NCBI RefSeq assembly: GCF_003334405.1
Contig: NZ_QOWM01000032.1
From: Escherichia coli
Lineage (GTDB): Bacteria; Pseudomonadota; Gammaproteobacteria; Enterobacterales; Enterobacteriaceae
Length of the DNA: 5,842 nt
Reading direction: 5' to 3' (one strand)
Shown here: positions 2,256-5,842 of the stretch, piece by piece
Layout: every line of letters starts with the position of its first letter
How positions within the stretch are numbered: the stretch's first letter is position 1
Translations under genes and position numbers: made by a program
Notes under the pieces: model-generated
The model's input: the letters and a program-made list of their open reading frames with translations, nothing else
What the model was told of the DNA's origin: nothing
Databases searched by the model: none

Positions 2256-2544
2256 AGTGGTTTTACCTGCCTTGCTGGCGTTAGGATTAATATCAATAAA
2301 TGCTAATGCCGCTGATCCCTGTAAATCTGTTTTTTGTCTTTATGGTAAAGCTGTCGGTAGTAGTGGAGGGAGTGAGTGCAGTAGTGCCGAAAAGGATTTT
2401 TTTAAAAATGTTGAAAAGAAAAAGGGGAAAATCCGCTGGAGTAAAACATTTGATCTCCGTAAAGGTTTTTTAAATCAGTGCTCAACGGCAGACCCGGCGG
2501 CAATCTCTCTGATCATGAGTAAGTTTGGTAAGATTAAGGGGTAG
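2239..2544 (+). CDS. Small secreted cysteine-containing protein, probably a TrbM/KikA/MpfK-family conjugal transfer protein.
   Basis: GAGGTG at 2229-2234 sits 4 nt before the ATG. The Sec signal peptide MTGKNRVVLPALLALGLISINANA has an A-x-A cleavage site before ADPC. The mature part has the pattern C-x4-C-L ... G-x-EC ... FLNxC, which matches my recollection of the TrbM/KikA family signature. That assignment is from memory and was not searched. The start overlaps the lipoprotein gene by 17 nt. Confidence 0.65.
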   Translation: MTGKNRVVLPALLALGLISINANAADPCKSVFCLYGKAVGSSGGSECSSAEKDFFKNVEKKKGKIRWSKTFDLRKGFLNQCSTADPAAISLIMSKFGKIKG

Positions 2545-2549
2545 ATGAT

Positions 2550-2807
2550 ATGAAAAAAAAAGAAAAGTTTGATTTTCTGAATGCAATAAAAGCAGGGCAC
2601 TCTGGCGTAATAACTGGTAATCCTGCTCATGCATTGGATGATAAGACTATGAACGCCATCATTCATAACTACGTGGCAACGATTGTGCCCGGTAAAGCAG
2701 GTAACTGCAAAGAAACTCCTCTCACAAAGTATTGTTCGAGGACTATGCCAGAGCGTATTTCAGTTGAAGAAATTAATGAGGTTAAAATTTATCCAGAATT
2801 CTTCTGA
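2550..2807 (+). CDS. Hypothetical 85-aa cytoplasmic protein with no recognisable family.
   Basis: AAGGGG at 2536-2541 lies 8 nt before the ATG, and the gene starts 5 nt after the previous stop. There is no signal peptide or TM segment. The ORF is the last gene before the stem-loop. Support comes only from position, RBS and operon context. Confidence 0.6.
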   Translation: MKKKEKFDFLNAIKAGHSGVITGNPAHALDDKTMNAIIHNYVATIVPGKAGNCKETPLTKYCSRTMPERISVEEINEVKIYPEFF

Positions 2808-2826
2808 ACAGAGATAAATGTAAACG

Positions 2827-2860
2827 CCGCAGATTCCAGATTTTAATCTGGAATTTGCGG
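2827..2860 (+). repeat. Near-perfect inverted repeat forming a stem-loop (16-nt arms). It may be a terminator/attenuator, an RNA processing or stability element, or a palindromic operator.
   Basis: CCGCAGATTCCAGATT (2827-2842), TT, then AATCTGGAATTTGCGG (2845-2860). Base-by-base pairing gives 15 Watson-Crick pairs plus one G-U (2832/2855). It sits in the largest intergenic gap of the window (2808-2888). No U-tract follows on the + strand (GGTTGAACAACC), so it is not a canonical intrinsic terminator. Confidence 0.6.
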
Positions 2861-2888
2861 GGTTGAACAACCGAAGGGCGTTAGTTTT

Positions 2889-3323
2889 ATGATGAATAAA
2901 TTTAGTTATGTCAATCGTATGCTTCGGCAAGTTTTTGTTTTTAGTTTTATCACGGCCCCATCAATATCTTTATTTGTTGTTTTTATGTTTTTTTCGTTTA
3001 ATAACTCAATTGCTGGTTCATTTTTAAAAGAGGCCAGGGGGCTTATAACCGATACTCCTTCTGATAAGGTTAACGTCTGTCTTTTCGAAAAGGGCGTACC
3101 ACAGGATATGGAGTTGACAAACTCCACAACTGAACATGTATTAAAAAATAAATGTATAACAACGTTAGTTGATGCTGCTGACTGGCAGGAATCTGTTGAC
3201 GGTTCTATTCGATATTTTTATTGGTCGTCAGTTGTTATTGGCTTTGTGGTCTGGTTTACCTTTAATTTTTGTGCACTGGAAGAACTATTTTATCGTAGAA
3301 ACAGAAAAGGAGACGTTGAATGA
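2889..3323 (+). CDS. Two-TM inner-membrane protein with a predicted periplasmic loop of roughly 70 aa. It is an orphan, translationally coupled to the downstream nuclease.
   Basis: TM1 is VFVFSFITAPSISLFVVFMFFSF and TM2 is YWSSVVIGFVVWFTFNFCAL. Positive residues flank both termini (NRMLRQ and YRRNRKGD), which implies N-in/C-in topology with the central loop (2 Cys) in the periplasm. The stop TGA (3321-3323) overlaps the ATG of the nuclease (3320-3322). The RBS is weak (GAAGGG 2873-2878, 10 nt from the ATG), so the exact start (2889 or 2892) is uncertain. Confidence 0.7.
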   Translation: MMNKFSYVNRMLRQVFVFSFITAPSISLFVVFMFFSFNNSIAGSFLKEARGLITDTPSDKVNVCLFEKGVPQDMELTNSTTEHVLKNKCITTLVDAADWQESVDGSIRYFYWSSVVIGFVVWFTFNFCALEELFYRRNRKGDVE

Positions 3324-3835
3324 GGATTTTTTTAAGCGTAATTTTATTCCTGTTTACTGCTTTTCAGTCTGCAAATGCAGGTGGAATACCTGGTGCTTTA
3401 GCAGGAATACTTTCTACATTAAACCAGGAAATCCAGGGGAAAGTTATTCGTGTTCTCGATGGCGATACCATCGAAGTTTTACAGGACAAAAAGCCCGTCA
3501 GGATTCGCCTGGCAAACATCGATGCACCGGAGAAAAAACAGGCTTTCGGGCGCTGGTCAGCAAATCAGCTTAAAGCTCTGCTTGCAGCACAGCCTGTTAC
3601 GGTGACGTACACGCAGACAGACCGCTACGGACGCATTATCGGTCATGTGTTCACGACGAACGGCACGGATGCCAGCCGCTTTATGGTTCAGTCTGGCGCT
3701 GCATGGGTATATGAACGTTACAACGTGGATGAGTCATTACCGGCTCTACAACGGGAAGCGCAGGAACAAAAACGCGGTTTGTGGGTCGATGCAAATCCGG
3801 TTCCACCGTGGGAGTGGCGATACAAACATAACTAA
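3320..3835 (+). CDS. nuc: Secreted (periplasmic) thermonuclease of the staphylococcal nuclease (SNase) fold family, like plasmid RP4 ParB-type nucleases.
   Basis: AAGGAG at 3307-3312 lies 7 nt before the ATG. The signal peptide MRIFLSVILFLFTAFQSANA is cleaved before GG. There are clear block matches to S. aureus nuclease: LDGDTIEV vs IDGDTVKL, IRLANIDAPE vs FRLLLVDTPE, DRYGRIIGHVF vs DKYGRGLAYIY, and QKRGLW vs EKLNIW. The residues corresponding to the Ca-binding and catalytic residues (Asp, Arg, Asp-x-x-Glu, Arg) are present, so the enzyme is probably active. Confidence 0.93.
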   Translation: MRIFLSVILFLFTAFQSANAGGIPGALAGILSTLNQEIQGKVIRVLDGDTIEVLQDKKPVRIRLANIDAPEKKQAFGRWSANQLKALLAAQPVTVTYTQTDRYGRIIGHVFTTNGTDASRFMVQSGAAWVYERYNVDESLPALQREAQEQKRGLWVDANPVPPWEWRYKHN

Positions 3836-3850
3836 CTGATAGAGGTTTTT

Positions 3851-4255
3851 ATGGCTTTATCACCCAAAGAAAAGAAAGAGTTACAACAACGCTTCGAAAA
3901 GCAATTACTACCTGACCTTGATATGTCATTTGAACTAAATGGCGAAGTATATAAATTTAATTTTGATAAAAATGAGTCAGGTGACTATATCGATAGTTTT
4001 ACACAAGCAGTATGGGGAGGTTATCAGGATGCCGAGGAATGGGAAAAATATGGTAAACATCAGGAGACAGAATTACCTGAATACCCTGAACCAGTCGAGG
4101 GTTGGTGCGACTGTGATAAATGTAAGTCGATGATTTTTCATAAAGAGAAAAATATTTATGTTTGCCTCTCCTGCCATAAACAAACAGAGCCATTTCTTCC
4201 AATTGACTGGAACTCAAACGATTACGATTGGCTACCTTATGAAGATGAATACTAA
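3851..4255 (+). CDS. Highly acidic 134-aa protein with a C-terminal Cys4-type zinc ribbon. Its function is unknown.
   Basis: AGAGG at 3841-3845 lies 5 nt before the ATG. By my count it has 30 Asp+Glu against 14 Lys+Arg, a net charge of about -16. The cysteines C86/C88-x2-C91 ... C105-x2-C108 (nt 4106-4174) form two CxxC knuckles 13 residues apart. It is rich in Trp/Tyr and ends in the acidic-aromatic tail DYDWLPYEDEY. There is no signal peptide. Confidence 0.75.
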   Translation: MALSPKEKKELQQRFEKQLLPDLDMSFELNGEVYKFNFDKNESGDYIDSFTQAVWGGYQDAEEWEKYGKHQETELPEYPEPVEGWCDCDKCKSMIFHKEKNIYVCLSCHKQTEPFLPIDWNSNDYDWLPYEDEY

Positions 4256-4315
4256 TGCTGAATACTTCACAGTCATAATGGATGAAATGGCGACATAAGC
4301 ATTAAGGAGGCAAAA

Positions 4316-4528
4316 ATGAATGATTGGCTCTGTTCTTTACATGATTTAATCACAAATCCTGTATTTATGCTGTCTTTTTCAGTTTTTTGGGTGTCTACGG
4401 GAACACTTTTAATCAGAACTGTATTCAGAAAAATTAACATATCTGAAATTTGCATACTTTTTTTATTATTGACACTAATAATTCTGTCTTTATGTATTTT
4501 TGTAACATTAAAAGCTTCTTTTAACTAA
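4316..4528 (+). CDS. Small (70-aa) hydrophobic membrane protein with two predicted TM helices. Its function is unknown.
   Basis: A consensus Shine-Dalgarno TAAGGAGG at 4303-4310 lies 5 nt before the ATG. The hydrophobic segments are VFMLSFSVFWVSTGTLLI and ICILFLLLTLIILSLCIFVTL, separated by RTVFRKINISE. The coding DNA is extremely AT-rich (I count 20% GC in 4441-4500). Confidence 0.6.
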   Translation: MNDWLCSLHDLITNPVFMLSFSVFWVSTGTLLIRTVFRKINISEICILFLLLTLIILSLCIFVTLKASFN

Positions 4529-4571
4529 AAGCAGCCACTAAAGACAAATCAGATACTTTTTGAGGGTTATT

Positions 4572-5147
4572 ATGCAATATGCATTGTTTGATGGATTTGA
4601 ACGAAAGTTTTTGCTGGATGCTCTTGAATTTGGTGTTCTGAAGGACTGGAAAGAAAATCCGGTAAAAGAACTTCCTGATATTGATGAATCTGTTCACCCC
4701 TTCCATGTCTGCTATGGTGGATATTTATTAAATCCTGGTGTTTCAGATTCAGATATTAGCAGAAAAATAAAAGACCAGACAGGATTCTGGCTGGCAGCTA
4801 TTGATGATACCCGCATGGATTGTCATTCAATAGCTTATTATGATATTCACACACTCCCTCTGATTTCGTGTGGACATCAAAAGATAGTTCCTTTTGCAGC
4901 GTTAATAAAAGCTGATGAATGCATCATTTCTAAAATTTCTGCGTATTCTGGTTTTGCCGTAACAGCCTTTTTGAGAATTAAAGACCAGGATATTGCAATT
5001 AATATACTTAACCGTGAAGGAATTTTTGCCTTTAATGGCTGTGAACGCAGGTTCAGACAACCTGTAGGTGAAGATAACTGGAAACAGGCAGTGTCAGAAG
5101 AACGTGCTATTCGCTGTGCAAACAGACTAATTCAGTGTAAAGGATAA
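4572..5147 (+). CDS. Hypothetical cytoplasmic 191-aa Cys/His-rich protein with no recognisable family. It lies immediately upstream of topB and is probably co-translated with it.
   Basis: The ORF track starts at TTG 4560, but ATG 4572 is preceded by GAGGG (4562-4566) at 5-nt spacing and is the more likely start. It has seven Cys and several His in motifs such as HPFHVCYGG, DCHSIAYYD, SCGHQK and FNGCERRF. Stop TAA at 5145-5147 is 4 nt before the topB ATG. Confidence 0.72.
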   Translation: MQYALFDGFERKFLLDALEFGVLKDWKENPVKELPDIDESVHPFHVCYGGYLLNPGVSDSDISRKIKDQTGFWLAAIDDTRMDCHSIAYYDIHTLPLISCGHQKIVPFAALIKADECIISKISAYSGFAVTAFLRIKDQDIAINILNREGIFAFNGCERRFRQPVGEDNWKQAVSEERAIRCANRLIQCKG

Positions 5148-5151
5148 CAAA

Positions 5152-5842
5152 ATGAGACTTTTTATCGCAGAGAAACCCGCAGTAGCAAATGATATTGTTA
5201 AGGCACTTGGAGGCAATTTTACCCGCCATGATGGCTGGTTTGAAAGTGATAACGCAATTGTGACTAACTGTTTTGGTCATATTATCGAATCACAGCCACC
5301 GGAAAACTATAATCCCGAATACAAAGCCTGGAAGGTTGAAACGCTTCCTTTACGTCTTTATCCCGTGAAGTATCAGCCTGTTGAAAGTGCAGCAAAACAG
5401 GTTAAAACGATTCTCGAACTTATCAGACGTGGAGACGTGACTGAAATTGTTCACGCTGGCGATCCTGATGATGAGGGACAGCTACTTGTTGATGAAGTCC
5501 TGGAATATGCCGGCAACACAAAACCCGTAAAGCGCGTTCTGATTAACGACAACACGCTTCCGGCAGTGAAAAAGGCGCTGGCAAATCTTAAAGATAATCG
5601 TGATTTCAAAGGGCTTTACCTTAAGGCGCTGGCGCGTTCAGTTGCCGATGCCGTCTATGGCTTCTCCATGACGCGTGCTTACACCATTCCTGCAAAAGCC
5701 AGAGGATATCAGGGCGTTCTGTCTGTCGGGCGCGTCCAGACTCCCGTTCTTGGCCTGATTGTGAATCGTACCCGTGCTAACCAGAACCATAAATCCAGTT
5801 TTTACTACACCATGACCGGAGTTTTTCAGCGTGGTGCTGATG
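5152..5842 (+). CDS. topB: DNA topoisomerase III (type IA), N-terminal Toprim region. It is 3'-truncated by the window edge and absent from the supplied ORF track because no stop is reached.
   Basis: AAGGA at 5140-5144 lies 7 nt before ATG 5152. The translation [12 protein letters not shown]...CFGHI...[21 protein letters not shown]...[10 protein letters not shown]...[20 protein letters not shown] is nearly collinear with E. coli TopB ([12 protein letters not shown]...[21 protein letters not shown]...[20 protein letters not shown]). This includes the Toprim Glu and the DxDxEG motif. Confidence 0.96.
   Translation, partial: [230 protein letters not shown]

Follow-up and report, generated by a model that had tools for sequence, protein, structure and literature searches.

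Gene content between the transfer operon and topB of an IncX4 plasmid: a variable accessory segment with a conserved stem-loop at its left boundary

This study concerns a 5,842-nucleotide (nt) stretch of Escherichia coli DNA (contig NZ_QOWM01000032.1), hereafter called the window, and within it the block of genes at positions 2550-5147 that separates the end of a conjugative transfer operon from the topoisomerase gene topB. A megablast search of 72,556 plasmid records yielded a full-length match of approximately 100% to NZ_CP070012.1, a 32.6-kb E. coli plasmid assigned to incompatibility group X4 (IncX4), MOBP and MPF_T; blastn showed a single mismatch. In total, 1452 plasmid records match the window, and the other 1451 are almost all conjugative Enterobacterales plasmids. 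Across the window, NZ_CP070012.1 possesses virB11, taxB, a Cag12 gene, a TrbM/KikA gene, five annotated genes and topB, with hha and hns next, beyond the end of the window. The block consists of six small co-oriented genes with good ribosome-binding sites, and apart from the nuclease gene nuc they are named here according to the length of their products in amino acids. A sequence-only reading of this DNA had listed six consecutive plus-strand open reading frames (ORFs) between the TrbM-like gene (2239-2544) and topB (5152). This is borne out, although RefSeq annotates only five of them, four as hypothetical proteins and one as a thermonuclease. The features are as follows.

7-1824: taxB, type IV coupling protein (T4CP) gene; annotation of NZ_CP070012.1
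1833-2255: Cag12-family lipoprotein gene; annotation of NZ_CP070012.1
2239-2544: TrbM-like (TrbM/KikA) gene; annotation of NZ_CP070012.1
2550-2807, plus strand: orf85, ORF starting 5 nt after the TrbM-like gene; RefSeq hypothetical protein WP_032233316.1
2822-2884, plus strand: stem-loop with 3' tail; from folding, covariation and conservation
2889-3323, plus strand: orf144, ORF with two hydrophobic segments
3320-3835, plus strand: nuc, ORF with Pfam SNase domain
3851-4255, plus strand: orf134, ORF for an acidic, zinc-ribbon-like protein
4316-4528, plus strand: orf70, ORF absent from the RefSeq annotation
4572-5147, plus strand: orf191, ORF with an alternative TTG start at 4560
5152-5842, plus strand: 5' part of topB (type IA topoisomerase); annotation; conserved right flank, context only

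The intergenic gaps in the block range from -4 to 81 nt. In agreement with the sequence-only reading, nuc is the sole recognisable gene, as it alone scores above a curated cut-off in Pfam, NCBIfam, PHROGs and PADLOC; for orf85, orf144, orf134, orf70 and orf191, the NCBIfam, PHROGs and PADLOC searches gave nothing above threshold. It was likewise right that the window holds no transposase, integrase or flanking repeats (judged by ORF list, annotation and repeat search), and at the edges of the block the repeat search found no pairs better than short chance-level matches.

The content of the block differs strongly between related plasmids. We aligned the window to four other IncX4 plasmids (L002 to L005), which share 96-98% identity with it in taxB and topB, and mapped at least four slots of replacement. 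In slot 1, the N-terminal two-thirds of orf85 are replaced by unrelated sequence in L004. Slot 2 comprises orf144 and the first approximately 35 codons of nuc, which in L002 and L005 give way to an unrelated protein of 102 amino acids with two transmembrane (TM) segments and a different signal peptide. Other genes stand in place of orf134 in L003 (slot 3). Slot 4 (4256-4545) is empty in L002; its content is orf70 in the window and L004, a gene for 106 amino acids plus a DUF6012 gene in L005, and a divergent copy of orf70, a gene for 119 amino acids and a DUF6012 gene in L003. The breakpoints recur at approximately 2529, 2887, 3427, 3819, 4279-4321, 4545 and 5138. For comparison, topB of the window is 95.6-98.2% identical to that of other IncX4 plasmids and 87-90% identical to that of IncI2 plasmids. 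Only 44 of the 971 plasmid records matching any part of 2550-4571 cover at least 80% of this interval, and other IncX plasmids carry aph(3')-Ia, an AAA ATPase gene or a DUF6012 gene in the corresponding place. In pMCR_WCHEC1606 (L010), an IncX4 plasmid of the epidemic mcr-1 type, 325 unrelated bases between trbM and orf191 replace 2530-4571, so that this part of the window is entirely absent there.

The order T4CP, Cag12, TrbM, stem-loop, membrane protein, nuc, variable genes and topB recurs in IncX1, IncX4 and IncX5. Two kinds of IncX5 plasmid exhibit T4CP, Cag12, a TrbM-like gene, the stem-loop, a small ORF, a two-TM ORF overlapping nuc, and further ORFs, which in the IncX5 plasmid that was read through finish with an AAA ATPase gene followed by topB. 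In IncX1, the stem-loop is followed by DUF6012, topB, hha and hns in one variant, by nuc, an AAA ATPase gene, orf191 and topB in another, and by aph(3')-Ia and then topB in a third. The same scheme is present in a Providencia plasmid and in a Klebsiella IncX-like plasmid. Moreover, the nuc-orf134-orf70-topB-hha part is common to IncX4 and IncI2. The IncI2 plasmid pHNY2 contains nuc, orf134, an orf70-like gene, DUF6012, topB and hha with DNA that is 84-87% identical to the window, and an mcr-1 IncI2 plasmid contains a nuc remnant, a PcfJ-domain gene, orf191 (95.8% identical to that of the window) and topB. The IncI2 copies of the module are located at L006 5467-9524 and L009 2571-7737, with DUF6012 or orf191 before topB. 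The canonical IncX4 allele of orf134 (L002; 99% identical to that of the window) is WP_001218543.1, and the same accession occurs in IncI2. Together with the 95.8% identity of orf191, this suggests that the two main mcr-1 plasmid groups have exchanged DNA.

The sequence-only reading had described the interval as an inserted mosaic cargo block. The mosaic part of this description stands, since whole genes or gene parts are replaced at recurring junctions among IncX4 sublineages and IncI2, with no transposition or integron machinery. The insertion part does not, since the recurring gene order and the sharing with IncI2 indicate a long-standing plasticity zone and not a single dropped-in cargo block. 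Judged from the alignments, the interval is a plasticity zone whose contents appear to be exchanged at gene boundaries.

Four further observations were made in these comparisons. The spacer of L010 (5191-5500) contains two hairpins with the common loop motif GCGCCAAC and a 19-codon signal-peptide-like ORF, and the first of these hairpins is also present in L004. The IncX1 plasmid L016 (3240-5117) carries aph(3')-Ia and a C45 peptidase gene directly after the stem-loop. In a second IncX1 plasmid (L019, 1417-2742), an adhesin gene with a YadA C-terminal domain lies between TrbM and the stem-loop. In the IncX5 plasmid pRHBSTW-00985_4 (L012), PLSDB lists 'OXA-949' (rgi, 100% identity) at 3758-4153, the exact coordinates of the Cag12-family gene, and this resistance call looks spurious.

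On its left, the variable interval is bounded by the stem-loop at 2822-2884. Its 20-bp stem is formed by 2822-2841 pairing with 2846-2865, and a tail extends to 2884. Both the apex AGATTTTAATCT and the 3' tail GGGGTTGAACAACCGAAGGGCGTTAG are near-invariant across the copies, and the tail contains the Shine-Dalgarno sequence of the next gene. The plus strand has a minimum free energy of -34.7 kcal/mol (z -5.4), compared with -24.9 for the minus strand. Copies are found in 592 plasmid records of the types IncX1, IncX4, IncX5 and IncX-like; among species-representative genomes, four IncX-like contigs also carry one (Rahnella, two Serratia species and one metagenome-assembled genome). Between IncX subgroups the sequence is 79-98% identical, and the flanking genes differ. 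In intact arrangements the element directly follows the last gene of the T4CP operon, and where the next gene abuts, its start codon lies 0-25 nt past the element. An alignment of 16 copies has 92.8% of its cells paired, with compensatory double changes at 8 of the 20 pairs; sliding the partner by 1-3 columns lowered pairing to 28-53%, and the observed values were reached in 0-1 of 500 shuffles. Rfam gave no match. We infer that the stem-loop would function in the sense-strand RNA, keeping the transfer operon and the accessory genes apart and providing the ribosome-binding site for the gene downstream.

Three other identities of the stem-loop were considered and rejected. It is not an intrinsic terminator, as there is no terminator-like site on the plus strand and no U tract, ACAACCGAAGGGCG following the stem. 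A sigma-70 or single-strand promoter would need more than the TTGAAC in the tail, yet no -10 element is conserved across the copies. Finally, the two origins of transfer (oriTs) reported for IncX are contained in long inverted repeats close to taxC and the replication gene (PMC3402527), and on this plasmid repeats of that kind are found away from the stem-loop. In L001, the stretch of the window-matching plasmid in which the block occupies 13239-15836, a perfect 70-nt inverted repeat is present at 22869-22938 and 29919-29988, approximately 7 kb and 14 kb from the block. One copy is just upstream of ddp1 (the apparent taxA equivalent) and taxC, the other near a replication gene. By this analogy, the repeats probably carry the oriTs.

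Within the block, nuc is the best characterised gene. Its product matches the Pfam SNase family PF00565 with 84.8 bits (cut-off 21, E 6.7e-24) and a thermonuclease in the PDB with E 5e-11. In staphylococcal nuclease, the catalytic and Ca-binding residues are Asp21, Asp40, Glu43, Arg35 and Arg87; the motifs DGDT, RLANIDAPE and DRYGR, located in the translation by eye and without structural alignment, indicate that these residues are intact. Residues 3-21 are hydrophobic and form a signal-like N-terminus. By these sequence features, nuc encodes a thermonuclease of the staphylococcal nuclease family with predicted export. The mature domain is conserved across IncX4, IncX5 and IncI2, and the exchange of the upstream membrane-protein gene includes the first approximately 35 codons of nuc (breakpoint approximately 3427). 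In the PADLOC candidate system SNc+LTD, nuc matches the nuclease part only (E 3.3e-14). Other plasmid-borne nucleases resembling staphylococcal nuclease are RP4 ParB and the IncI1 nuc product; Nuc of pKM101 belongs to a different (phospholipase D) family.

The product of orf144 is a predicted inner-membrane protein with two hydrophobic segments by hydropathy, and the 4-nt overlap with nuc suggests translational coupling. The gene occurs in 170 records, in 82 of them with at least 80% identity. Most of the sampled IncX4 and IncX5 plasmids that possess nuc encode an unrelated two-TM protein of 102-113 amino acids instead, and a comparison of orf144 with the allele of 102 amino acids detected no similarity. 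Against the TraP family, orf144 scores 13.4 bits with Pfam PF07296 (cut-off 25) and 15.3 with NCBIfam PRK13739 (177); two homologs score 18.5 and 13.8 bits, and all three members align to the same part of the profile. A comparison by hhalign of orf144 (3-sequence profile) with F TraP gave E 0.0013 and a probability of 18.6% over 77 columns. Two cysteines and the motif C..C..DAAD[WY]..D.S are common to both. Homologs with 36-48% identity are encoded between traF and trbB of an MPF_F plasmid, and also between traF and a DotD/TraH gene in an I-type-like (DotD/TraH, TraJ) transfer cluster; these positions differ from that of traP in F, which is after traB. From this combination of profile, motif and context, orf144 is probably TraP-like, and would then be a non-essential membrane accessory of conjugation.

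The soluble, basic protein of 85 amino acids encoded by orf85 is found in 296 plasmid records. It weakly resembles VirB11 of the same plasmid in two pieces whose order is permuted (residues 1-41 to VirB11 253-293, residues 30-75 to VirB11 202-253), and it reaches E 5.6e-5 with the NCBIfam VirB11 model, far below the cut-off. Judging from this pattern, orf85 may be a recombination scar or scrambled gene fragment. At a comparable position just after the stem-loop, the IncX5 plasmid L012 (4565-4768) has a fragment of 67 amino acids annotated as 'TraM recognition domain'.

The gene orf134 is found in 313 plasmid records of IncX4 and IncI2. Its product has an isoelectric point of 4.4 and a C-terminal zinc-ribbon-like motif (CxCxxC...CxxC). 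Against the libraries and PDB sequences, it shows only weak, generic zinc-ribbon similarity. Since the family is small and shallow, the AlphaFold model is unusable, with a predicted local distance difference test (pLDDT) of 37. The database label 'exodeoxyribonuclease V subunit beta' (RecB) has no support in a protein of 134 amino acids that shows no match to helicase or nuclease domains and only a generic zinc ribbon.

The product of orf70 has 70 amino acids and two hydrophobic segments, and the gene lies where the plasmid reaches its highest AT content over 200 nt (26% GC). An AAGGAGG stands 5 nt upstream of the ATG, in-frame homologs with 45-48% amino acid identity occur in the IncX4 plasmid L003 and the IncI2 plasmid L006, and orf70 is present in 138 plasmid records, mostly unannotated. 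These three observations together indicate that orf70 is a real gene missed by annotation.

The product of orf191 belongs to a stand-alone family of proteins of approximately 185 amino acids, with approximately 250 clusters at 50% identity, for which Pfam has no model. AlphaFold predicts its fold with confidence (pLDDT 90.5), and no solved structure matches this fold convincingly. In all IncX4 plasmids examined, in the IncX1 plasmid L019 and in the mcr-1 IncI2 plasmid, orf191 ends 4 nt before topB. A general role as a dedicated TopB partner was rejected, however, since distant family members occur in other plasmid contexts lacking topB. Kinship to DUF6012 (PF19475) was rejected as well, as there is no Pfam match and the hhalign probability is 0.1%. 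The label 'DNA topoisomerase III' is likewise unsupported, as Pfam and NCBIfam searches of orf191 and 34 family members revealed no Toprim or topoisomerase domain; this label has probably spread from the neighbouring topB.

The sharp alternation of GC content, which the sequence-only reading had noted in its mosaic cargo block, is ordinary for this replicon. Its five hand counts over 60 nt are exact (26.7, 55.0, 30.0, 20.0 and 58.3%). However, in 60-nt windows GC content varies with a standard deviation of 0.084 within the block and 0.083 elsewhere on the plasmid, and in 200-nt windows the values are 0.068 and 0.061, respectively. That reading had itself stated that the idea fails if such variation is ordinary across the replicon, and given the equal spread inside and outside the block, the GC argument falls on its own terms. 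The sole extreme is 4401-4600 with 26%, which ties the plasmid-wide minimum for 200-nt windows. Nor does GC content follow conservation: the AT-rich orf191 (38% GC, 27% at third codon positions) is the most widespread gene of the block (1200 plasmid records).

It had further been proposed that the block genes are needed during mating. This does not fit the absence of 2530-4571 from L010, nor the published screen of pHNSHP23, according to its authors the prototype mcr-1 IncX4 plasmid, in which saturating Tn5 mutagenesis identified 18 conjugation-essential genes, none of them between trbM and topB (PMC8725589). The named essential genes are pilX, taxA, taxB, taxC and tsxA, the unnamed ones cds4, cds9, cds10 and cds16 (PMC8725589). 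Of the latter, cds9 and cds10 are at the promoter end of pilX, and the deletion primers of cds4 and cds16 map to L001 20870-21139 and 26277-26819, outside the interval. Therefore, orf191 and topB, the only interval genes in L010, were not called essential.

Regarding expression, in Cappable-seq of pHNSHP23 the only reliable transcription start of the transfer region was the one upstream of cds9, RT-PCR (reverse transcription polymerase chain reaction) linked cds9 to trbM, and induction of PixR raised 15 genes over approximately 15 kb (PMC8725589). One of the genes up-regulated by PixR is cds6 (PMC8725589); as coordinates are not given, it could be either the Cag12 gene or the first gene after trbM. 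In the window, promoter-like sites are not in excess (9 found, 14.2 expected), and there is no plus-strand terminator. In the window-matching plasmid (L001 553-1250; likewise L029 268-2078), an IS1 element lies between the side with taxC, a small ORF and the EexN lipoprotein gene and virB2, and no pilX1 (VirB1) is listed. Thus, the transfer operon of this plasmid may be cut off from its PixR-dependent promoter.

Taken together, the block is a variable, dispensable accessory segment of a well-known backbone and not a demonstrated new conflict system. We consider it likely, with a probability of roughly 0.7, that the interval is a hypervariable accessory segment of the IncX-type backbone, flanked by the end of the pilX-taxB-trbM operon and by the topB-hha-hns module. 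According to this model, the replacements would arise by homologous recombination in the conserved flanks. Transcription would enter from the pilX operon and be processed or attenuated at the stem-loop (2822-2884), which would supply the ribosome-binding site of whichever gene comes next. Since whole sublineages do without them, the block genes would modulate transfer rather than enable it, and they might have envelope-associated or DNA-handling roles, for example as a periplasmic nuclease with a membrane partner or as a companion of topoisomerase III.

Several points weigh against this model. The mechanism of homologous recombination is deduced from breakpoint patterns. The RT-PCR primer was located at the trbM 3' end and is silent on the genes downstream (PMC8725589). 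Co-transcription of the long block with the transfer operon is therefore no more than plausible. The published mutagenesis was performed with K-12 donors and recipients on agar and is blind to defence evasion, host range, biofilm and plasmid competition (PMC8725589). The TraP link of orf144 is below formal thresholds. Last, the near-invariant loop and tail of the stem-loop suggest a sequence-specific recognition that the model does not explain.

An alternative is an anti-defence or establishment island, as the sequence-only reading had suggested, with small genes that counter the defences of recipients or aid establishment and an arms race as the cause of variability. The content is indeed highly variable within a conserved backbone, the proteins are small and uncharacterised with one of them strongly acidic, a distant orf191 homolog belongs to a small co-oriented gene array beside a resolvase gene and a UmuC-like gene, and such roles are outside the reach of mutagenesis in isogenic K-12 strains. 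However, there is no positive evidence for anti-defence, establishment or exclusion functions: PADLOC-DB 2.0 is negative for the orphan genes, and the plasmid's annotation places an EexN-family entry-exclusion lipoprotein at another site. Moreover, such genes cluster and work best in the leading region, an anti-CRISPR being far weaker from the lagging region (PMC11541004), and the block does not adjoin the likely oriT repeats. The stem-loop also lacks the conserved -10 needed for a single-strand promoter, and the epidemic-type L010 does without the genes, which makes such an island unlikely. The presence of nuc could alternatively suggest competition or exclusion, the exported nuclease degrading foreign DNA at the envelope and the membrane protein serving as its anchor or inhibitor. 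A membrane-protein gene overlaps the start of nuc in both IncX4 and IncX5, the N-terminal part of Nuc is exchanged jointly with the membrane protein, and there is the match to the SNc+LTD component in PADLOC. We regard this as quite unlikely, because the joint replacement may merely reflect the position of the breakpoint, orf144 looks TraP-like with homologs in tra operons lacking a nuclease gene, no membrane-protein gene overlaps the start of nuc in other plasmids, the plasmid encodes an EexN-family exclusion lipoprotein at another site, and deletion of nuc left the stability of pOXA-48 unaffected (PMC12365149).

The stem-loop raises the question whether the block is a cassette array exchanged by site-specific recombination, with the element as an attC-like or other recombination site. 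Swaps at gene boundaries, the constant presence of the stem-loop at the left edge with 79-98% identity despite differing flanks, the aph(3')-Ia directly after it in one IncX1 plasmid and the location of the IncI2 module downstream of a site-specific integrase gene would agree with this. However, there is one copy per array and not one per cassette, no integrase or recombinase gene is nearby in IncX4, and several breakpoints are inside genes (nuc at approximately codon 36, C-terminus of orf85), as fits homologous exchange. In addition, G-U wobbles favour folding of the sense strand and the tail holds the ribosome-binding site, which fits a role as RNA; a cassette array is thus very unlikely. 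A broader proposal, which is doubtful but would be of wider interest, is that the stem-loop is an undescribed cis-acting IncX element, either for RNA processing or translation control or as a recombination or single-stranded DNA site. It would then be a 'landing pad' for the exchange and expression of accessory genes, and some of the passing genes (the membrane protein with Nuc, orf134, orf70, and orf191 or its DUF6012 alternatives) would be determinants of conflict between plasmid and host or between plasmids.

Colistin resistance by mcr-1 is carried mainly by IncX4 and IncI2 plasmids. Knowing which parts of the backbone are fixed and which are exchangeable, and that the region from nuc to topB is traded between groups, is useful for annotation, plasmid typing and the comparison of lineages. 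The practical gains are modest: orf70 is added, two misleading database names are corrected, and orf144 receives a probable assignment as TraP-like. The most interesting by-products are the unnamed orf191 family with its confident fold and the conserved stem-loop, which is a candidate for keeping the transfer operon and the downstream genes apart in their expression.

In comparison with known systems, the window is the IncX4 form of the IncX backbone (PMC11880322; transfer genes of IncX4 in PMC8725589), with the order pilX11(virB11)-taxB-Cag12-TrbM ... topB-hha-hns. The interval from taxB to topB appears in published descriptions as 'hypothetical proteins', and in the limited literature searched we found no description of its slot-wise variability, its sharing with IncI2 or the conserved stem-loop. 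The leading-region anti-defence islands (PMC11541004) resemble the block in that small, co-oriented genes, variable and for the most part uncharacterised, are arrayed on a conjugative plasmid. However, the block is not adjacent to oriT but downstream of the transfer operon, and it lacks ssb, psiB, ardA, a methyltransferase gene and a Frpo-like single-strand promoter. The nuc genes of pCTX-M3 and pOXA-48 share with that of the window the SNase domain, the signal-like N-terminus and a position beside transfer or maintenance genes, and they are essential for neither function (PMC12365149). In contrast to them, the start of nuc in the window is overlapped by a variable two-TM gene within a recombination-prone array.

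TraP of F is a non-essential, pilus-stabilising protein of the inner membrane. It has a membrane segment, two cysteines and the DAAD[WY]..D.S motif in common with orf144 and its homologs, and these homologs are encoded within tra operons. However, orf144 is shorter, is found downstream of the coupling protein in a P-type (VirB-like) system and is replaceable by an unrelated two-TM protein. Intercistronic stem-loops such as RNase III sites and stabilisers of the REP (repetitive extragenic palindromic) type process or stabilise polycistronic mRNA. The element of the window resembles them as a long, covariation-supported hairpin of the sense strand exactly between two cistrons and with no U tract, but its loop and 3' tail are almost invariant across the IncX subgroups, which is unusual for such elements.

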